Assembly: GCF_006345805.1 (NCBI RefSeq)
Contig: NC_043001.1
Location: 61,132,001-61,196,000, forward strand
DNA: 64,000 nucleotides
Direction: 5' to 3'
From: Octopus sinensis
Lineage: Eukaryota
A model generated the notes under the pieces. It was given only the letters and a program-made list of their open reading frames with translations, was not told the origin of the DNA and did no database searches. Below are positions 9,116-62,690 of this stretch, piece after piece; position 1 is the first letter of the stretch; every line of letters starts with the position of its first letter. A program made the translations under genes and the position numbers.

Positions 9116-10384
9116 CGAGGGGCGTTCAATAAGTAATGCCCCTGACCCACTTCCCATAGCAGTAGAGCAACGACACTTGGCACAGTTATTAGTCTTTTCC
9201 TACATAGGAACTACCCAGAGTTATGCATTTCTCCCATCTTTTGATACAGCTCTGGAGTCCGTTTTTGTAGAAGAACCCAGCTTGGTCCTCCAACCACGAC
9301 GTGACTTCAGAAATCAAGGCTGCATCATCTGGGAAACGCTTTCCTTTCAAAATCAACTTCATGGCTGGGAAGAGGTGAAAATCAGAGGGTGCAAGGGGAG
9401 GAGTTCATAGCTGCACGCCTGTGCTTCTGATCTGGCGACACGCGAGTTGTGGACCGGAGCGTTGTCCTGCAGGAGGAGGATGCCTTTGCTGATCTTGCCC
9501 CGCCTCTTGATTTTGATAGCTTCTCTTAATTTCCTCAAAAGTGAAGCATAATAGGCTCCTGTAATTGTGGTACCCTTTGCCAGGAAATCTGTCATCACTA
9601 ATCCGTCCTGGTCCCAGAAGACTGTGAGCATGACCTTGTCAGCAGAGGCTGCACCCTAGCCTTCTTTGGAGAGTGTGAGTCACGGTGCTTTCACTGCATT
9701 GACTGGGCTTTGGTCTATGGATCATAGTGATGGACCCAGGTTTTATCCTGTGTAATCAGTCTTTTGAAAAAATTTGACTCATCTTCTTGGCACATCTCCA
9801 AATTCATCCTGGAGCACCCAACGCGTTCTTGCTTCTGGAAAGGTGTGAGCAACCTGGAAATCCATCTGGCAGACACCTTTTGCATATGCAAATGGTCATG
9901 AATGATAGTTTCCACAGACCCAGTACTAATCTTGACCTTATGGGCTATTTGGCGAATGGTTATGCGTTGACCTTCCAAAATGGCAGCCTCAGCTTGACGG
10001 ACAGACGTCTCATCAACGGCAGAAGGGGGCGACCAGATCTGGGAGCTGTTTCCACAGAGTTCCGACTATGTTTGAATTCATAATGCCAGCGTTTTATAAG
10101 GTCATATGATGGGGCATCATCACCATAAGTTACTTTAATTTCATCAAAAGTCTCCCGTGGTGTGCGTCCTTTCAAATACAAAAGCCGGATCACTGCTCGA
10201 CACTCAACAGGCTCCATTTCACACTTGACTCAGTTCAAACACCTGTAAATCAGAAACCACAATTAGTTCAGAGCTGTAATTCGCCACTTAATCTATAGAG
10301 GTATCCATAAGTGCACTTGCAAGATTTCAGCTAGATCAAACAACTGCAAATGGGTCAGGGGCATTACTTATTGAACGCACCTCG
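9116..10384 (-). mobile_element. Full-length mariner transposon, 1269 bp
   Basis: 34-bp TIRs cgaggggcgttcaataagtaatgcccctgaccca (1 mismatch) with TA target duplication at 9114-9115 and 10385-10386. Confidence 0.97.
9189..10217 (-). pseudogene. Mariner transposase, frameshifted
   Basis: Three ORF pieces: HTH region (MEPVECRAVIR...PRSGRP), KVSARWISRLL / ITQDKTWVHHYDP, and LQDNAPVH. The YSPDL motif is partly deleted, leaving LAPSDFHLF. Confidence 0.93.
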
Positions 10385-12320
10385 TACTATGAAAATGTCC
10401 AACCCCACAGTCAACAGAAAATAATGAGAAACCTAAAGACTATGTTAAACCCATACAGAGAAGGGCTCACCGACAAAGAATATGATTATATTACTAACTT
10501 CAAAAGTAAATTCAGTCAATTCCTAAGATACACAAAAGTGAGAAAATAAGTAACGCGTGCAGAATAGCTACAGACATAATAATCAATCTACTCCTAATGA
10601 CCTCAAATTAAAACCTATAATATCAGGTCCCGCATGCTATACCTACCGCCTCAGTAACTTTTTAGACACATTCTTAAAACCATTCCTCAGGCATATCAAA
10701 AGCTACATAAGGGACGACGTAGATATGCCTCTCTAAAACAATAAACAAAAACTCCCTACTAGTATCCATCAATGTAGTCAATCTCTATTCTAATATCCTC
10801 TACAGCCTAAGAATAGAGGTAATCCAATTCTGGCTAGAGAATTACTCCATTGAACTCTCACATAACATCAAAAAAGTATTCGTCCTAGGAGGGCTAATAT
10901 TCATCTTCGAAACTACTGCCTTCAAAGACAACTTCTATCGACAAAAATCGGAGACTGCGATGGGTAACAGAATGGCCCCCTTCCTTTCTAACCTAGTCAT
11001 GGGACATCTAGAAATTAGTCTTTGTTGTAAGGTACTATAAATATAGGTCAACCCATTCTCCCTCAACATAGAAAATAACTGGAAGCGGTATCTGGATGAC
11101 TAGTTCATTCTTTGGCATGAAAGTATAGAGAGATTTAAAGAATTTCAAGCACCTATAAATGGACTTGACAGAAACATTCAATCTCTGATGGAATAGAGCC
11201 TTCAACAACTTCCATTCCTCGACATCCTAATTAAGAAATCCAACAACAAAGTAGAAACAGATATATACTACAAACACACGGGCTCCGAGCACTATCTACC
11301 CCAGTCACACTAGAATGAATATCCCCTTCAACCTAGCTAAATGGATTTATACTATAGTTTCTAATACAAGCACCAGGTACACACGACTACATGATATACT
11401 CATTACCAGGAACCACCTACAATCACTATTTGATAAAGACGTTCAACGTGCCCTACAACTCAACATCCACGAACTCAGGTATCCCAAACTAAAGAGGCAT
11501 TTAAAACAACATCACACAAAACCCCCTTAACAATGAAGCCATCGACACCATCCTCCGGAGCATCCCCCTACTAAAGAGGGATGACAGAATGAATTTAATC
11601 CTCCAAATGCACAATCTCATAAGGAGTAAAAGACAACCAAAATCTATGAAAAGACTCTTAACTCGAGCCCAAGTAAGCTTGACAATAACTCTGACGCCGT
11701 TAGTAAAAAAATGCGGAAGACCAAAGTGTAGTATATGCGTCAACCTAATCGAGGGATCGGAATTCTCTTTCAAACAGGGTCAACGTTTTACTGTGAAAAA
11801 CATTTTCACGTGTGCTTCGGAAAACCTAACATATGTATTAACTTGCTCAGGGTGTCAATACATAGGCGAAACCAAAAACAGTCTGCGTTAAGGTATGGCT
11901 CTACATAGATCCCAGATCAAAATTCGGGAATACAGAAAGGTAGCATTCAGCAAATACATCGACACTTGTGCCACTCACGAACAAACCAGCTTCAGAATTT
12001 TTCTCCTCTATAAAGTCAGGGTCTATGCAACCTGTAGTCAGCGATTTAGGGAAGAGTTCTATTTTATCACAAAATATAAACCCCTTTAAACGTGTCCATC
12101 ACCAATGGCATTAATACAGGGGCATTAGAATAATATGCACGCAAATATTAAAACGATATATTCAGTAGAGTCACTACCCATTAATTTATTCAGAACAATT
12201 CCAGTCACTACTATTACAAGCACAACAGATCACTTTTAGGACCTTTGACCATTTAAGAGGATTCCACCAACTTCTTATTACTGTCATACCACTCCCTTTT
12301 TTTATAATTCTTTCTCATAT
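10385..12320 (+). mobile_element. Decayed Penelope-like element (RT + GIY-YIG); its 5' stub ~9095-9115 is split off by the mariner
   Basis: RT motifs LKPIISGP..TYRLSNFLD, VVNLYSNI, QKSETAMG.RMAP, WKRYLDD and LPFLDILI. GIY-YIG region KCGRPKCSIC...NLTYVLTCSGCQYIGETKNSLR (11589-12089). Confidence 0.92.
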
Positions 12321-21247: not shown

Positions 21248-21282
<35 letters not shown>

Positions 21283-21286
<4 letters not shown>

Positions 21287-21690
21287 ATAAATATTAGGGA
21301 ATAAATCCAAATTTACAGGGAAAAATCAGATTTAGGATTAAATCCAATTTTATAGTAAAATATTATATAATATAATTCGAGACAAAACCACTACATTGCA
21401 AAACAAACAAGGAAAGACTTAATCAATACATAAAAATTTTTAATATAAAGAAATAAACCGCCACTACAATCGTTTCATGTCTTCAATGACATTCGTCAGG
21501 TGGACGTTCGATCTCCTAATCTGTTTTAATTTTAATTTCAGATCGGTTGTCAAAGTTTACTTAGTATCGTTAGTAACTTTAAGCATGCTTATAGAATTTA
21601 TACTCCGACTAACTCTGTAGCAGACGCGGCATGAACTTTGAGTGCTGGACTTGTTGTTTTGTCTTGTCTCTGATTTTAATTTAAATTTAT
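21283..21690 (-). mobile_element. Non-coding hammerhead-bearing element between microsatellites (PLE pseudo-LTR/retrozyme-like)
   Basis: Flanked by (TA)n and (CA)n. Contains the HHR at 21461-21503. 21536-21674 recurs inverted at 22290-22428. Confidence 0.65.
21461..21503 (-). ncRNA. Minimal type I hammerhead ribozyme motif
   Basis: Minus strand reads CCAC-CUGACGA-AUGUC(AUUGAA)GACAU-GAAA-CGAUUG-UA-GUGG. Perfect 4-bp stem I, perfect 5-bp stem II, intact core. Confidence 0.88.
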
Positions 21691-22289: not shown

Positions 22290-22428
22290 ATCAGAGACAA
22301 GACAAAACAACAGATCCAGCACTCAAATTTCATGCCGCGTCTGCTACAGAGTTAGTCGGAGTATAAATTCTATAAGCATGCTTAAAGTTACTAACGATAC
22401 TAAGTAAACTTTGACAACCGATCTGAAA
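22290..22428. repeat. 139-bp inverted copy of 21536-21674
   Basis: About 3 mismatches by eye. Confidence 0.9.
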
Positions 22429-46199: not shown

Positions 46200-48125
<1,926 letters not shown>

Positions 48126-52018: not shown

Positions 52019-52100
<82 letters not shown>

Positions 52101-52115
52101 CATGTGTATACATAT

Positions 52116-52156
<41 letters not shown>

Positions 52157-52718
52157 TATAAGTACATTAAAAGGCCTCTAAAAGAAGAATCAAGTACTAG
52201 ATACACAAAAAGGGGATAAATTCATGAAATGAAAATCAAAAACGTTTACAAACTCAGCTCATCTTGTACTGCAGTTTCGTCTTTTTTTTTAGCAGATGAA
52301 TATAATTTATCTGCCTAGGCTAGACTCATCAGCAAGCAGCCTTTGTCATCCTAGAAGTACATATCGTTAGAAGCATGTGCGATTCTAACGACCTGCATTC
52401 TCTAACTTTTCAGACAAGTGCGCAGACGCAAAACATACCCGGCGAACAGAGAGGATGCCGGCAGAAGGTCTACGAGCAAATTTATCGAACAATATGTAAA
52501 CATAGTAAATAGGGTAATAAAATAAATTATTATTACCTGTGTTCTAGCACAAAAGACAAATTAGTCATTAGACTATATGTTATTCATATATAAGTACATT
52601 AAAAGGCCTCTAAAAGTAGAAGCAAGTACTAGATATACAAAAAGGGGATAAATTCATGAAATGAAAATCAAAAACGTTTACAAACTCAGCTCAACTTGTA
52701 CTGCAATTTCGTCTTTTT
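52157..52718 (-). mobile_element. Retrozyme-like non-coding element: 432-bp unit with ~130-bp terminal direct repeat and hammerhead
   Basis: 52157-52286 repeats at 52589-52718 (offset 432). Complete HHR at 52263-52336; half HHR at 52695-52714. No ORF; abuts (TA)n. Confidence 0.75.
52263..52336 (-). ncRNA. Type I hammerhead ribozyme, canonical core
   Basis: CUUG-CUGAUGA-GUCU[...GCAGAU..AUCUGC...]AGAC-GAAA-CUGCAG-UA-CAAG. Predicted cleavage between 52267 and 52266. Confidence 0.9.
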
Positions 52719-52779
52719 GTTTTTTTTTTGCTCGTAGAACTTCTTATATATATGTTTATATATATATGCATATATGGAT

Positions 52780-53545
52780 ATATAACGAAAACAGAAAATG
52801 GAGATGAAATTGATGAATAACAATTTACACCAATTATCATTTATTAACTAATTACTAAAAGACAGAATCTCATCTTACAGTTGTTTCTGTTAGCGGAATT
52901 ACCATGCTTAACCACCACAATAATAATAATAGTTATCATTGTAAGTAATTAATTATACGAATTTCAATAGCGGAACTTCATAAGACCGGAAAATAAAGTA
53001 AAATATAAAAAGTAAAAAGAGAAAAGAAATAGGAGAAAGCGAGAAAACGACAATATATCAATTCATATTACATACTGTCCCTCTGGGAGACTTTCGACCG
53101 ACTAGAATTTAGAAATGGAATTGAGATAGTTATAATATTTAGTGCTACATTCCTATATACCGGATGGAAGGCTACTGCCGGCGTGGGTTAAATATATAAC
53201 AACTATAAGAGCAATTTCTTTAGGTCATAATATAAAAATAAATAGGAAGAAATATAATTAAAAAACAGATAGTTATTAAAATACATAATAACAGTCGGCT
53301 CTAATTTATTGATTTTCTGCGCATTTTACTTATTATTACATGTAGGTAGCATACCCGGACCAACCCCAGATCAGAAGTAGGAATTGTCTGGACAGTAAGA
53401 GTATACTATTGATTAGTTAATCCGTGCTAAGATAGACTTCTTTCTATCATGCAGTTGCCTATTCAGCCGCTCTGAGATCTTTCACGTGCGTCCCATGAGA
53501 ATTTGTGTGTCCCTTGCTTGACAGTGTGCTGGCCTTCTTTGTTTA
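52780..53545 (-). mobile_element. PLE-like non-coding terminal remnant with decayed hammerhead
   Basis: GAAA-CAACUG-UA-AGAU half at 52872-52887 and eroded GUCU-UAUGA at ~52977-52986. Flanked by (TA)n. Confidence 0.45.
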
Positions 53546-54149: not shown

Positions 54150-57100
54150 GGGGAAGGCCTCTTCCTCGGCAGTGGATCAGTAAAGATGCAGACTGACCAC
54201 TGCTGTCAACCTAATAAATCATGAGCAGATAATAGAGCCAGGTGGAGGAAGTGGACCAGAAGAGAAAACAGGATAGTGATACAGTGCTACTTAAAAGGTG
54301 AACCTAAAAGAAGGGGCTATAGAAAACAGATGTGAAAACTTTGGGTACGGAAGAGTATGTTTAAAGTGACTGAGCAGAGAATAGGTGATCAAGCTGTAAT
54401 GCTATTAGGAGAAGAAATTGGATGGCAGAATTGGAGGTAGAAGAGATCACAAGAACTGGAAATGAAAGACCAGGCAGTGGGAAAGACAAACGACATCATA
54501 AGAGATACATCTGAAACCAGAGAAGAACCTAATGAAAAAATAATAATAGCGCTCCAATAAAGAAGGGACAACTGGCACCAACGAATTAAAGAAGATCAGA
54601 AGATTTTAGATGATTTGCAGGAAATAATAAGTAAAGAAGAAAAAGATTGCCAGCATTAAATGACATCAGAAAAAATAAGCTATAAGAAATGTGTAAGAAA
54701 ATAGTTTTGTTATCAGGAGGAAAAACACTAAAGATATAGAAGACAGTAACTTATTGATCTATGCAGGAAGGGTAGTAGTTACCAAAAGATTAGATATCAC
54801 ACAAGGAAAGATTTGAAAAGTGCAAACGTGGAAAAGGTGACTACAAAATAAAGTGAAGACTTTAAGACAAGATCTGAGTAGAATAGAAACCTGGAAACTG
54901 AACAAGTTAGGAAACACAAGAAGCAAATCTTCCATCGAGAAAATATATTTAGTCAAAGAGAAACGGCTTGGGACAGTAATAGAAGAGTTGAAACAGCGTA
55001 CCATTGCAGTAGCAGGCAAGCTTCTCAGATATCAGTAAAGAATAGATCATTATCAACAGAATAGACTATTTGAGACAGACCAGAGAAGATTTTATAACTA
55101 AATAAATAGTGGAGAACGAAGTACTGAAGGTGAGAAACCTAGTGCAGAGGAAGCTAGAAGGTTCTGGAGTAATATTTGGGATAAACCAGTCAATCATAAT
55201 GAAGATGCAGTATGGTTAAAGAAAGTGTAGAAGTAGTGAGTAGAAGCCAGATCTAAGATTAACTAATTAATGACTAAAGTGTTAGGGAAAATGCCGAACT
55301 GAATGGGCCCAGGGCCAGATTTATATCAAGGGTACTAGATAAAGAAATTCACTAGTTTACATGGGAGATTGAGGGAGAAACTTCAGGATTCCCTTAATGG
55401 TGAAATAATACCGGATTGGACGACTAGAGGGAGGGGAATACTCATTATGAAGGCGAATACAGCTAGCAACTATAGACCAATCACTTGCTTACCACTAATG
55501 AAGAAGCTGTTAACAGGAATGCTTTCAGAAATAATTTACGAGCAGCTTGACAACCAGAATTTACTACCAAAAGAGAAAGGTTGCAGGAAGAAGGCGAGAG
55601 GAACGCATAATCTATTATATATAGACAAAACAGTTTTAAATTAGGTAACATCTTCAAAGATAAATCTAACAATAGCATGGATAGATTATTGGAAAGCCTA
55701 GGATATGATCCCACACTCATGGATAAGTGAATGAAAGAGATAGATTCCTTAACACCGACCTTAAGACTCTTCATCAAAGATATAGGCATGGAATCTGACA
55801 TAGATAAGTGTGCAATATTAGCCATGAGAAGGAGACAGGTAGTCAAAAGCGAAGGCATCCAATTACCAGATGGCCTGGCATTAAAATCATTGAAAAGAGA
55901 AGTTATAAGACTCTAGGAGTATTAGAATCTGGCATATACTAAATATAGAAATGAAAACGACAACTGAGTAGATCAGAAGTGTGAAAGAAGCTAATGAAGT
56001 CAGAGATGAATGGTTCGAATCTAGTGAAGGCCGTAAATACTTGTGCAGGCTCATTACTTTTACACTCAGCAACTTTTGTTGATTGAACAAAAACTGAATT
56101 AGCAAAGCTAGACAGAAAAACTAGGAAGGAATTCAATATGAATTGAGGATTCCACCCATGTACAAGAGTAGCAAGATTATACCTACCTAGAAAGGCAGGT
56201 GGAAGAGAGTTAATATCAATTGAAGACTGGATGGAGTTCGCTAGAGTAGGTATAGAATCCTATGTAGCTAATAGTGAAGAAAGTTTTTTAAAAGCTGTTA
56301 GATTCACAGCAAGACATGGAGAAACCAAAAAGCAAACGAACTTAAAAACCAGAGAAAAAACCAAAACTTATCTCACTGGCAGGAGAAGGCGTTGAGTGGT
56401 AGATTCTCCAAGATAGTTTCAGTAAATAGTAGTGAGGCATGGTTATGGTTGCCGACGGGAAAGCTGCAGAGGGAGACCGAAAGTTTGTTAGGAGCTGCAC
56501 ACAATCAAGCGTTTGGGACTAATTGGATAAAAGCCAAAATAGACAAAAAACAAGTAAGTTCCCAATGTAGAATATGCAGATCAAAGGAGGAAAGCGTTAC
56601 TCATATAGTAAGGGAATGTAGCATGCTGGCACAGAAAGAATATAAGTAAAGACATGACAATCTAGGGAGAGCAATTTACTGGGAGCTTTGCAAGAAGATA
56701 GGATTTGAACATACAGATAAAAGGCATGAACATGAACCTAGTAAAGTACTAGAAAGTATGAAGTACATGATGTTGTGTGACTTAACATTCAGACTGACAG
56801 TGTGATAGAAGCTAGAAGGCCTGATTGGTAGTAGTAGATAAAGAGAATAGAAAGTGCCAGACAATTGACTTTATACAGTCCCAAATGATGAAAACATTAA
56901 TATGAGAAGTACAGAAAAATAGTGAAGTACCAGGACTTAAATATTGAATTACAGGGACTATGGAAAGGGCGGGTTATATGTATCCCAATAGTTATAGGTG
57001 CATTGGGAACTTTCACTAAATATGTGAGCAACAGATGGATATAAGACATTGGCATAATACCCGGTTTATTACAGCTGCAGAAAAGTGTAATTAGGGACAG

Positions 57101-57202
57101 CTAGAATACTTCGGAGGGTTCTTTGCATCTAAGGCAACTTGCTGTAGGCCGATGTTAGGATTCTTTTCATTTCCAACAACCTAGTCTGTTGAGTGTATAT
57201 GA
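54150..57202 (+). mobile_element. Decayed R4/Dong-clade RLE retrotransposon, family A
   Basis: NYRPITCLP, KGCRK..RGT..LLYID, LYLPRKAGGR.L, CCHC knuckle CRIC...ESVTHIVREC, RHD, RPD and PIVIGALG. The central RT (QG/YxDD) region appears deleted near 55730. Ends in (AAT)n. Confidence 0.88.
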
Positions 57203-57204
57203 AC

Positions 57205-57300
<96 letters not shown>
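57203..57300. repeat. (AAT)n microsatellite
   Basis: Directly visible. Confidence 0.98.
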
Positions 57301-57497
57301 TACATAACAAAAACACCAGGACTTACAGACACATATAACATACAGAAAATTGCACTACTAGGCACTGCACACATCCTACGCAGAACACTTTCCATACAAT
57401 AACCATCAGAGCATCACAACAAATCACAGCACATACCCAAGGCACACAGAGCTTCGCTCGGTAGTGAAGTGAAAGCACGCTATAAAAAATAAAACTA

Positions 57498-57501
<4 letters not shown>
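57301..57501 (+). mobile_element. 200-bp 5'-truncated 3' end of RLE family B (duplicated at ~59737-59936)
   Basis: Matches 62494-62693. Flanked on both sides by (AAT)n. Confidence 0.9.
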
Positions 57502-57530
<29 letters not shown>

Positions 57531-59691
57531 CTTCTTTGAACAAAACAAAAAGTTCAACTCCAACCACAAAAAGTTCTACCAAGAACTTGGCAAAAATAAA
57601 ATAGAAATCACTGCAGCACCAACGGCAGAAGAAGTAGAAGAATTCTGGAGAGAAATATGGTCGGCGAACGAACAAGCAAAAAAAAAAGGAGTATCAAAAT
57701 AACAAACTCAGCATCTGAGCAACTTTGGACCCCCATAACAACTGAAAGGTCACCCAGGCACTGCAAAGATTAAGCAACTGGAAGGCACCTGGGCATGACA
57801 ATATCCCCAACTTCTGGTTGAAATATCTAACAGGAATGCACAAAAAGATGGCTAAAACTTTAACAACCTACTAGCAGAGCCAGAGACAATGCCTGAATGG
57901 CTCACGAAGGGGAAAACCATCTTAATTCCCAAATCAAATGAGACAGCAAAACCAGAAAACTACAGACCAATAACCTGTCTCCCTACTATGTACAAGGCTT
58001 TTACTGCAGTGATATCGCAAAGGTTGAACAAACACCTGGACGAAAACAACCTGTTTCCAGAAGAGCAGAAAGGATGCCGCAAAGGCTCATATGGCTGTAA
58101 AGATCAACTAATGATTAATAAAGCCATAACTGAAGACAGCCACAGAAAGAAGAAAGGCCTCAGTATGGCCTAGATAGACTACAAAAAGGCGTTTGATAGC
58201 ATCTCCCACACATGGATCCTCGAAACACTAGCCATTAACAAAGTAGCACCAACAATCATAAAATTCATAGGGCACTCTATGAATAAATGGCAAACAATGC
58301 TACAACTCCAAACAAAAAGGGACTCATGAAAACCAAAGCCATCCCCATTAGAAGAGGAATATTCCAGGGAGACACGCTCTCTCCACTCCTTTTCTGCTTG
58401 GCACTGTCACCTCTATCTGATATGCTAAATAGAACTGGATGCGGATATAAATGTTACGGCAAAACGATCAGCCACCTTTTATATATGGATGACCTAAAAC
58501 TATACGCTGCAAATGACAAACAGCTGGAAACACTATTAAAGACAGTTCATGGATTTACCAAAGAAATAGCAAAACTAGGAAGGAATTCAATATGAATTGA
58601 GGATTCCACCCATATACAAGAGTAGCAAGATTATACCTACCTAGAAAGGCAGGTGGAAGAGAGTTAATATCAATTGAAGACTGGATGGAGTTCGCTAGAG
58701 TAGGTATAGAATCCTATGTAGCTAATAGTGAAGAAAGTTTTTTAAAAGCTGTTAGATTCACAGCAAGACATGGAGAAACCAAAAAGCAAACGAACTTAAA
58801 AACCAGAGAAAAAACCAAAACTTATCTCACTGGCAGGAGAAGGCGTTGAGTGGTAGATTCTCCAAGATAGTTTCAGTAATAGTAGTGAGGCATGGTTATG
58901 GTTGCCGACGGGAAAGCTGCAGAGGGAGACCGAAAGTTTGTTAGGAGCTGCACACAATCAAGCGTTTGGGACTAATTGGATAAAAGCCAAAATAGACAAA
59001 AAACAAGTAAGTTCCCAATGTAGAATATGCAGATCAAAGGAGGAAAGCGTTACTCATATAGTAAGGGAATGTAGCATGCTGGCACAGAAAGAATATAAGT
59101 AAAGACATGACAATCTAGGGAGAGCAATTTACTGGGAGCTTTGCAAGAAGATAGGATTTGAACATACAGATAAAAGGCATGAACATGAACCTAGTAAAGT
59201 ACTAGAAAGTATGAAGTACATGATGTTGTGTGACTTAACATTCAGACTGACAGTGTGATAGAAGCTAGAAGGCCTGATTTGGTAGTAGTAGATAAAGAGA
59301 ATAGAAAGTGCCAGACAATTGACTTTATACAGTCCCAAATGATGAAAACATTAATATGAGAAGTACAGAAAAATAGTGAAGTACCAGGACTTAAATATTG
59401 AATTACAGGGACTATGGAAAGGGCGGGTTATATGTATCCCAATAGTTATAGGTGCATTGGGAACTTTCACTAAATATGTGAGCAACAGATGGATACAAGA
59501 CATTGGCATAATACCCGGTTTATTACAGCTGCAGAAAAGTGTAATTAGGGACAGCTAGAATACTTCGGAGGGTTCTTTGCATCTAAGGCAACTTGCTGTA
59601 GGCCGATGTTAGGATTCTTTTCATTTCCAACAACCTAGTCTGTTGAGTGTATATGAACAATAATAATAAATAATAATAAATAATAATAATA

Positions 59692-59736
<45 letters not shown>

Positions 59737-59962
59737 TACATAACAAAAACACCAGGACTTACAGACACATATAACATACAGAAAATTGCACTACTAGGCA
59801 CTGCACACATCCTACGCAGAACACTTTCCATACAATAACCATCAGAGCATCACAACAAATCACAGCACATACCCAAGGCACACAGAGCTTCGCTCGGTAG
59901 TGAAGTGAAAGCACGCTATAAAAAATAAAACTACTGAATAATAATAATAATAATAATAATAA

Positions 59963-62690
59963 TCTTCTTTGAACAAAACAAAAAGTTCAACTCCAACCAC
60001 AAAAAGTTCTACCAAGAACTTGGCAAAAATAAAATAGAAATCACTGCAGCACCAACGGCAGAAGAAGTAGAAGAATTCTGGAGAGAAATATGGTCGGCGA
60101 ACGAACAAGCAAAAAAAAAAGGAGTATCAAAATAACAAACTCAGCATCTGAGCAACTTTGGACCCCCATAACAACTGAAAGGTCACCCAGGCACTGCAAA
60201 GATTAAGCAACTGGAAGGCACCTGGGCATGACAATATCCCCAACTTCTGGTTGAAATATCTAACAGGAATGCACAAAAAGATGGCTAAAAACTTTAACAA
60301 CCTACTAGCAGAGCCAGAGACAATGCCTGAATGGCTCACGAAGGGGAAAACCATCTTAATTCCCAAATCAAATGAGACAGCAAAACCAGAAAACTACAGA
60401 CCAATAACCTGTCTCCCTACTATGTACAAGGCTTTTACTGCAGTGATATCGCAAAGGTTGAACAAACACCTGGACGAAAACAACCTGTTTCCAGAAGAGC
60501 AGAAAGGATGCCGCAAAGGCTCATATGGCTGTAAAGATCAACTAATGATTAATAAAGCCATAACTGAAGACAGCCACAGAAAGAAGAAAGGCCTCAGTAT
60601 GGCCTAGATAGACTACAAAAAGGCGTTTGATAGCATCTCCCACACATGGATCCTCGAAACACTAGCCATTAACAAAGTAGCACCAACAATCATAAAATTC
60701 ATAGGGCACTCTATGAATAAATGGCAAACAATGCTACAACTCCAAACAAAAAGGGACTCATGAAAACCAAAGCCATCCCCATTAGAAGAGGAATATTCCA
60801 GGGAGACACGCTCTCTCCACTCCTTTTCTGCTTGGCACTGTCACCTCTATCTGATATGCTAAATAGAACTGGATGCGGATATAAATGTTACGGCAAAACG
60901 ATCAGCCACCTTTTATATATGGATGACCTAAAACTATACGCTGCAAATGACAAACAGCTGGAAACACTATTAAAGACAGTTCATGGATTTACCAAAGAAA
61001 TAGATATGAAATTTGGATTAGAGAAATTGCGCCAAACTAACCATGAAAAGAGGAAAACTAGTTAAGAGAAGCAACATCACATTAGATAAAACCAATGAAA
61101 TAAAAGAATTAGACCAAAGCCAAACTTACAAATACTTAGGAATCCATGAACTAGATAAGACACAACACACACAAATGAAAGAGAAAATAAAAAAGAATAT
61201 TATAGACGAGTTAGATCAATACTAAAACAGAGCTCAATGCTAATAACAATAGGTATTAACACTTTAGCCGTCCTAGTTATAAGTTACAGCTAAAATACCA
61301 TTAACTGGTCACTAAATGAACTGACCAAAATAGATAGGAAAACAAGAAAAATAATGGCAGGGTCTAGGATGCATCACCCAAAGTCTGACATAGAAAGACT
61401 ATATATACGACGTATAGAAGGTGGTAGAGGCCTTATACAGCTGGAAAACTACTATAAAATAACTACCATTGGACTGAAAAAATATCTACTTCAGAAGGAA
61501 GGAAAACTGATACAAATAGCGGCAAAACACGAGCAAAACAAAAAACTGTTCTCAGTATTTAAGGAAGCTGACAAATACAAACAAGAAATCAAACCACCTA
61601 ATAAATATGAAGAAGAAGAAGAAGAAGAAGAAGAAGAAGAAGAAGAAGAAGAAGAAGAAGAAGAAGAAGAAGAAGAAGCAGAAGAAGAAGAAGAAGAAGA
61701 AGAAGAGAAGAAGAAGAAGAAGAAGAAGAAGAAGAAGAAGAAGAAGAAGAAGATAAAGAAACAACAAAAGCTATAAAAGAAATGCAATCCAAACTAAAAA
61801 TAGAACAGCAAAGAACCATGATAAAACGATGGCAAGAAAAGCCCCTTCATGGTAAATACTGGACTAAACTAAACGCAAAAGAAATAGACAAAGAAAAATC
61901 CTAGCAATGGTTGAGAAGCTCAGCACTCAAAGCAGAGACAGAGGGATTTTTAATTGCAGCACAAGACCAAAGCCTCCCCACCAGAAATTACCAAAAACAT
62001 GTAATGAAAAGAAATATAACAAGTAACTGAAGAATATGTGGAGATGGACAAGAAACAATAAATCATATTATCTCTGGCTGCCCAGTCCTGGCTAAGAAGG
62101 AATATATTCACATACATGACAGAGTTGGAACCTACATACACTGCAAGCTATGCCAACATTATGTAATAACAACAGAAAAAAAAGGTATAGGCACACACCA
62201 GAAAAGGTCACAGAAAACGAGAAAGCAACCATACTCTGGGATATGCCGATACACACAGATAGAGAAATTAAGGCCAACAGACCAGATATAGTTGTCAGAG
62301 ATCATGAAGGAAAAAAATGCTTCCTAACTGATGTATCAATACCAGCGGATGACAACGTGTCTCTAAAAGAAATGGAGAAACTTTCAAAATACAAAGACCT
62401 GGAAATAGAGGTAACCAGAATGTGGAATCTAAAAACAGAAACAATTCCTATCTTAGTAGGTGCATTAGGCATGATAAAAAAATATTCAGACAAATACATA
62501 ACAAAAACACCCGGACTTACAAACACATATAACATACAGAAAATTGCACTACTAGGCACCTCACACATCCTACTCAGAACACTTTCCATACAATAACCAT
62601 CAGAGCATCACAACAAATCACAGCACATACCCAAGGCACACAGAGCTGCGCTCGGTAGTGAAGTGAAAGCACGCTATAAAAATAAAACTA

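Follow-up and report, generated by a model that had tools for sequence, protein, structure and literature searches.

A hammerhead retrozyme clade in the genome of Octopus sinensis and its likely mobilization by Hydra-type Penelope-like elements

The 64,000-nucleotide (nt) stretch of Octopus sinensis DNA analyzed here (the window) carries on its minus strand a short element without an open reading frame (ORF) that belongs to a large clade of hammerhead-bearing units. The reading that we favor, as reasonably probable, is that this element is a 5′-truncated, 1.3-unit copy of a non-LTR retrozyme, placed into (TA)n by the reverse transcriptase (RT)-endonuclease of a Hydra-clade Penelope-like element (PLE), the template probably being a circular RNA of 432 nt. 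The parts of this reading differ in strength. We regard it as nearly certain that the element is non-autonomous and was moved by a PLE, and as likely that the helper was a PLE of the Hydra type; that the template was circular is, on balance, the better-favored view. The case is built on what can be observed in the genome: the hammerhead motif, the anatomy of the insertions, the family, the covariation of its stems, the target, a rule governing the ends, the tandem arrays, and two loci at which a sister family is fused to Hydra sequence.

Which RT moves the retrozymes of animals, and whether a circle is its template, are matters that the cited accounts propose and do not show (PMC7229834; bioRxiv 10.64898/2026.07.22.740005). 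The octopus genome offers a testable system: a young substrate family, intact PLE ORFs of 717 and 778 amino acids (aa), a (TA)n target, and a pair of sites at which priming is predicted. Its interest rests on the link to a named helper clade and on the multi-lap arrays, not on the single copy in the window.

Structure of the window element

The features of the insertion, in window coordinates, are as follows.

52156..52722, minus strand: main arm of the insertion, an ORF-less element of 1.3 units (unit positions 409-432, 1-432, and 1-111)
52267..52698, minus strand: the single 432-nt unit between cleavage sites, 35% GC
52263..52336, minus strand: complete type I hammerhead motif with a 47-nt stem II and a palindromic 2-bp stem III; predicted cut at 52267/52266
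52695..52722, minus strand: half hammerhead, truncated at its 5′ side, with the 3′ strand of stem II, GAAA, a stem III with one G-U pair, and GUA/CAAG; predicted site at 52699/52698
52156..52290, minus strand: 3′ copy of a pseudo-LTR-like repeat, whose terminus is the family's short 3′ end (unit ~106-113) in TA microhomology
52588..52722, minus strand: 5′ copy of the same repeat, with five of the six private differences that separate the copies
52473..52503, minus strand: long 3′ end site of the family (unit ~203-207) and the motif after it, kept in sister families B and D; it weakly resembles the short end of a Hydra-type PLE, at a level that null runs also reach
About 52727-52744, plus strand (within 52727..52757): inverted short piece at the 5′ junction, corresponding to unit ~219-236
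52022..52155, no strand: target microsatellite, (TA)n/(TG)n, adjoining the 3′ junction
52745-52785: degenerate TA run on the opposite side of the insertion

A first-pass annotation, made from the letters of the window, had described a direct repeat of ~130 bp at a 432-bp offset, with a complete minus-strand type I hammerhead in the left copy, half a hammerhead in the right copy, no ORF, and an adjoining (TA)n, and all of this holds. The repeat measures 135 nt at a spacing of 432, with 96% identity and six differences, and it is a permuted part of the unit. Every component of the complete hammerhead can be located: stem I (CUUG at 52336-52333, 4 bp), CUGAUGA at 52332-52326, stem II at 52325-52279 closed by GUCU/AGAC, GAAA at 52278-52275, and a 2-bp stem III with a palindromic UGCA loop followed by GUA/CAAG. 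The right copy has the 3′ half alone, beginning inside stem II and carrying a C-to-U change at position 15.2. No stop-to-stop frame in the 567 nt is longer than 62 aa. The insertion is flanked by TA runs, and both junctions, which were looked at for a target-site duplication of more than 4 bp, fall within (TA)n. The annotation had overlooked the inverted piece at the 5′ junction, after which 7 nt (within 52727..52757, plus strand) resemble the long 3′ end, a match too short to serve as proof. It had further described the unit as bounded by cleavage sites, and here the result is mixed: the distance from site to site is indeed 432 nt, but the insertions start and end elsewhere, ~110 and ~205 nt downstream.

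The unit thus combines a type I hammerhead motif with the short, low-GC, ORF-less character of retrozymes. It is predicted to fold more stably than 100 shuffled versions of itself (z = −3.47). Against the Rfam model Hammerhead_1, positions 52261-52338 reach 25.3 bits (E = 0.0075), short of the gathering score, which is 34. The predicted active fold of the isolated motif (−9.0 kcal/mol) is not its minimum-energy fold (−15.1 kcal/mol), which, as a matter of modeling, argues against a cycle that depends on cleavage.

The copy in the window is not a recent one, because all six sites that differ between its repeats are private against the family, five of them in the right copy, and it is probably a dead passenger. 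It holds one complete and one half hammerhead, not the two consecutive complete hammerheads by which Li et al. (2026) define an active copy, and a 432-nt RNA would therefore be likelier to come from dimeric loci. In principle, the complete core could cut the upstream half site in a predicted dimer fold; cutting at the downstream site would depend on a weak predicted monomer fold. This locus might release a unit. Contigs from four sequencing runs that are not on record as RNA cover parts of the unit, its ends and any circles being beyond their reach.

A clade of related units

We searched the genome assembly (2.72 Gb, 13,516 contigs) with the unit, which gave 1,964 first-look candidates, and with its 3′ part, which gave 1,534; the best 40 of each were scored, so the family loci described here are best matches and not a random sample. 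They bear out the earlier suggestion that the element is a ~1.3-mer of a retrozyme family. The exact pattern of a long-stem-II hammerhead occurs 438 times in the genome and once in the reversed control, and this excess, together with the covarying stems, shows that the hammerhead is not a product of chance. A short-stem-II pattern has no genomic match, and one further pattern (668 matches against 140 in its control) served for finding loci only. Among the first 100 listed of the 438 matches, 21 belong by our reading to the window's own family (A), 68 to a 404-bp sister (B), 4 are intermediate, 6 belong to a distant ORF-less family (C), and 1 is unrelated. Sister D, with units of ~437 to 439 bp, has 175 pattern matches; the units of sister E span 443 to 447 bp, and that of sister F is 445 bp. 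The clade of ORF-less units as a whole ranges from 398 to 447 bp, and a peak in depth over 52496-52595 traces to sister D and not to an ORF.

Between subfamilies, seven natural units drawn from A, B, the intermediate type, and E are 54 to 87% identical. When 16 hammerheads from families A, B, and D are aligned, 94% of stem cells are paired, versus 28 to 39% in controls with the alignment slid, and both sides have changed in three of the four stem I pairs and in 6 of 11 pairs overall; we give weight to the slid control and the types of pairs, because related sequences can beat a shuffle control. The palindrome of stem III persists despite changes of letter in sisters E and F and in one type of D, and such a palindrome is described as permitting cleavage by a double hammerhead (PMC4209133).

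Rfam reported one hammerhead in a scan of six sister and helper loci, and that one belongs to the window's family. Long-stem-II families are probably undercounted, because their hammerheads score below the Rfam threshold. Further type I hammerhead families of this kind were seen at L122:1991-2611, L030:2803-2896, L078:1819-1910, L123:7696-7789, and L004:2460-2552, one pair of hammerheads being spaced 542 bp apart, and the genome seems rich in them. Family C (six loci, L122-L127) is ORF-less, with a 43-nt stem II and an identical stem III, is otherwise unlike A, and has a splice-donor-like stretch after its cut site.

Target and two-end rule

End statistics were compiled for 49 loci of family A, duplicates dropped and the window included. 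Of 79 3′ ends, 69 fall in two windows of the unit, one short (~106-113) and one long (~203-207). Both lie on ATAT continuing into (TA)n, and the 5′ ends are scattered; the insertions run across the cleavage site and terminate at these two internal sites. An inverted arm is present at 31 of the 49 loci: 21 combine a long end and a short one, 10 have one odd end, and the combinations long with long and short with short are absent. Sister F obeys the same one-short-one-long rule at 7 of 10 distinct two-ended loci, and so does the young, intact Hydra-type PLE family of this genome that has the 717-aa ORF: in the latter, all eight two-orientation loci among 33 combine long and short, the short end overshooting into TA in 3 of those 8. 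A 5′-end hot spot may lie just past the long site, about which the biased samples permit no claim. At one locus, L061:616-3451 (C19:4596500-4602500), an A copy and a 4.8-unit B array stand back to back in a single TA tract.

This anatomy is that of a non-autonomous PLE, with a partial tandem (the pseudo-LTR, or pLTR), 5′ truncation, an inverted 5′ copy, and a tail at a single end, the last being a known PLE trait (PMC8557442; PMC3846280). The (TA)n target with two 3′ ends is Hydra-like. The two-end pattern matches the two internal RT start sites described for a PLE of the anole (PMC11167929).

From these observations we infer a cycle that comprises transcription, dimeric cleavage, circle ligation, twin priming, and a named helper. 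A locus with two hammerheads would be transcribed. Cleavage by the hammerheads, likely paired as a dimer by way of the palindromic stem III, would leave a free unit, which a host ligase would close into a circle. A PLE protein would then introduce a nick in (TA)n and start cDNA synthesis at an internal site of the RNA, ~110 or ~205 nt past the cut. Each DNA strand would use one priming site, which would yield inverted copies with one short and one long end. The cDNA would pass the ligation junction and continue for 0.3 to 8 laps before stopping at random.

Tandem arrays and the RNA template

The first-pass annotation had proposed a check for multimers and copy number. Two exact-core hammerheads one unit apart occur at 5 of the 49 family A loci, and the dispersed arrays of B, a young family, reach 8 units. 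All 12 B loci inspected end at the long site, with scattered 5′ ends, no inversion, and 0 to 8 full units. Substitutions per pair of B units average 2.4 within arrays versus 9.8 between them (42 units, 10 arrays; 0 of 5,000 permutations); in the same sample, sharing a rank does not bring units closer to each other. The six B arrays with at least four units hold 31 variants confined to a single unit versus 4 common to two units, and two of these arrays are variant-free; the variants within arrays include some sequencing error. Such array-specific haplotypes are what repeated laps on one circle would give. Two other routes to the same homogeneity would be read-through of a source array that is itself homogeneous and unequal exchange after insertion.

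The first of these alternatives keeps the non-autonomous PLE and changes the template, which would be an uncut linear read-through of a tandem locus, with hammerhead cleavage rare or late and copying free of circles. We consider it unlikely, and it is the alternative that survives best. Catalytic mutants of the anole PLE hammerhead still insert, with RT beginning at two internal sites (PMC11167929), and in that one PLE, studied in vitro, cleavage is reported as unneeded for insertion and uncut RNA as the main template. The autonomous Hydra elements of the octopus genome have the identical partial-tandem anatomy, and a homogeneous source array would likewise yield homogeneous daughters. With a fixed 3′ start and 5′ truncation, however, daughters of a linear template can be as long as their source or shorter, yet arrays of three to eight units are common in several B haplotypes, and the hammerhead core and stems have been retained across units just 54 to 87% alike.

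The second alternative is that insertion produces ~1.x-mers and that the long arrays grow afterward by unequal crossover, like satellites, which would make them uninformative about the RNA template. Growth of this kind is proposed in bioRxiv 10.64898/2026.07.22.740005, and it fits the array-specific haplotypes and the four variants common to two units of an array. It nevertheless strikes us as improbable. The longest arrays occur in the least diverged family, B, whose units are 94 to 100% alike to one unit, whereas the older family of the window reaches at most ~2 units; moreover, 31 of the 35 within-array variants occupy a single unit, and two of six arrays have none. Copying of a circular RNA is thus the reading of the arrays that we prefer.

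Likely identity of the helper

The first-pass annotation had reasoned that copies always attached to a PLE RT ORF would mark an ordinary pseudo-LTR. Across 168 family loci (114 distinct stretches), the unit was never the normal end of a PLE ORF, and tblastn of three PLE proteins against them returned neighbors and one nested insertion. No ORF joining an RT to a C-terminal GIY-YIG domain, as in autonomous Hydra-clade elements, was found in the unit or in the family loci checked. Candidates for an autonomous parent (a Neptune-like family of 30 loci, three Hydra-type seeds, and family C) had no DNA likeness to the unit, and blastn and nhmmer searches with the units gave no parent PLE among the autonomous families compared. 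It is very improbable, and already largely refuted, that the units are 3′-end (pLTR) remnants of an unfound autonomous PLE: although PLE families remain unseen, because 150 each of 22,234 Hydra-like, 5,436, and 12,029 PLE candidates were scored, the units stand head to tail with no ORF between them, and of 30 loci retrieved through a motif inside the unit, 29 continue into the unit and none into an ORF.

The genome holds two intact PLE ORFs, of 778 and 717 aa, which are 33% alike. By eye, the 717-aa ORF carries RWK, DKT, and CxCX5C, the motifs given for the Hydra clade (PMC8557442), and resembles Hydra-1_Obim; the 778-aa ORF has DKT and is without the linker, and its sole organism-named match is from Argonauta. 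Pfam gave no family for either Hydra-type ORF or for the window's PLE fragments. Both Hydra-type groups end in (TA)n at two sites. Their hammerheads also bear on the remark of the first-pass annotation that stem II is unusually long: the length of 47 nt stands, but long stems are common to several Hydra-type PLE families here (54 to 58 nt in the 778-aa group), with 31 nt in the 717-aa family. Published Hydra hammerheads have a short stem II (supplementary table of PMC8557442). Separately, in two young Hydra-type families (L245-L247 and L166-L169) the core of the hammerhead reads CCGAAGA instead of CUGANGA.

Of the 29 distinct loci of sister F, two hold copies that are joined directly to Hydra sequence, no TA run intervening. 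The first, L241:304-1743 (C1:104607000-104610000), is one insertion composed of a Hydra arm with the long end and 1.75 retrozyme units with the short end; TA lies at the outer ends only, and the remainder of the Hydra arm is missing downstream. The second, L283, has a 227-nt piece of Hydra endonuclease fused to the 5′ end of the retrozyme. Insertion plus deletion could mimic these two fusions. Families A, B, and D yielded no direct Hydra fusion, and a candidate at L017 is instead nested within a Hydra ORF and bordered by TA at either end.

A 30-nt likeness between the 3′ ends of family A and the 717-aa family (25/31; 0 and 2 of 1,000 shuffles) was spotted by eye first and stands among 15 comparisons. 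As a sign of parentage it vanished in a position-blind profile scan, where 18 of 40 null runs were equally high (804 comparisons). Naiad and Neptune elements likewise can target TA (PMC8557442), and Naiad was considered as a helper because the supplement of that paper lists a 35- to 50-nt "half core" for an octopus Naiad; the RT seed from this inquiry proved to be Hydra-like. A Hydra-type helper is the likely one, with Naiad as a possible candidate.

More tentatively, the data may record a recently active radiation of long-stem-II retrozymes, whose circles would be rolled by RT dimers of a Hydra-clade PLE, one protomer per site, even on two different RNAs, as at L241. We hold this broader picture to be possible, short of probable. 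If true, it would name a helper for an animal retrozyme, prove from genome sequence that reverse transcription can proceed by rolling circle, and provide a young substrate, along with intact ORFs of its helper, for reconstitution.

Other elements in the window

A second type I hammerhead, of another family, lies at 21280-21510 (minus strand), with a 16-nt stem II and GUA; its 3′ end is ~190 nt downstream in (TA)n, and related pieces flank several other loci. An inverted 139-bp repeat (21536-21674 and 22290-22428) accompanies it. Positions 10367-12086 (plus strand) hold a broken Neptune-like PLE with RT and GIY-YIG, which has young relatives with frames of up to 784 aa. At 46680-47616, a 450-bp unit occurs in 2.1 copies, 99% alike, with a TA run in each and no hammerhead seen; one frame reads like what we take to be the end of a Helitron-type helicase. 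A tandem duplication of ~2,456 bp (98.7%) spans 56096-61003 in a LINE-like element.

Comparison with known systems

The closest relatives in kind are the metazoan non-LTR retrozymes (PMC7229834). Both have ORF-less, low-GC units, those described here falling inside the reported 150 to 450 bp, a type I hammerhead with a 2-bp stem III and a tetraloop, tandem copies, and coexistence with PLEs. The octopus units differ in a stem II plus loop of 42 to 47 nt, in the mostly dispersed one- to two-unit copies with inversions of family A, and in a fixed (TA)n target with two 3′ ends, which the account consulted in PMC7229834 does not describe. RNA, cleavage, and circles are shown there for coral, mussel, and axolotl and are predicted for the octopus units.

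A preprint by Li, Clavereau, and Pollet (2026; bioRxiv 10.64898/2026.07.22.740005) argues that retrozymes are non-autonomous PLEs, on the basis of 31 vertebrates, 3 insects, and a coral, with no mollusc in the survey as cited. It shares with our analysis the PLE origin and the monomer, dimer, and multimer copies. The frog work rests on co-occurrence and pLTR homology, whereas our comparisons turned up no homology to the pLTR of the autonomous families examined; insertion anatomy and fusions make the link in the octopus, and they point to the Hydra clade. Eight of nine frog retrozyme dimers were uncut in vitro, which counts against the proposed cycle, and the preprint describes the evidence on the retrozyme life cycle as limited.

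The Hydra-clade PLEs themselves (Craig et al. 2021, PMC8557442) share the (TA)n target, a 3′ hammerhead often with GUA or GUU, partial tandems, an inverted 5′ copy, and a tail at one end. The octopus unit has no RT-GIY-YIG ORF, unlike these elements, whose published stem II is short; its tail is ~95 nt, versus the 30 to 40 nt quoted for PLEs. The PAc Poseidon element of Anolis (Frangieh et al. 2024, PMC11167929) is alike in that two internal RT starts past the hammerhead define the tail; the start site of PAc lacks homology to its target, whereas both octopus ends lie on ATAT matching (TA)n.

Our literature search, mostly of titles and abstracts, found no description of a hammerhead retrozyme family from an octopus or other cephalopod; Repbase was outside its scope, and a prior annotation is possible. 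The kind of element, and the PLE origin argued for it, are known; what sets the octopus family apart is the unusual clarity with which the genome points to a helper.
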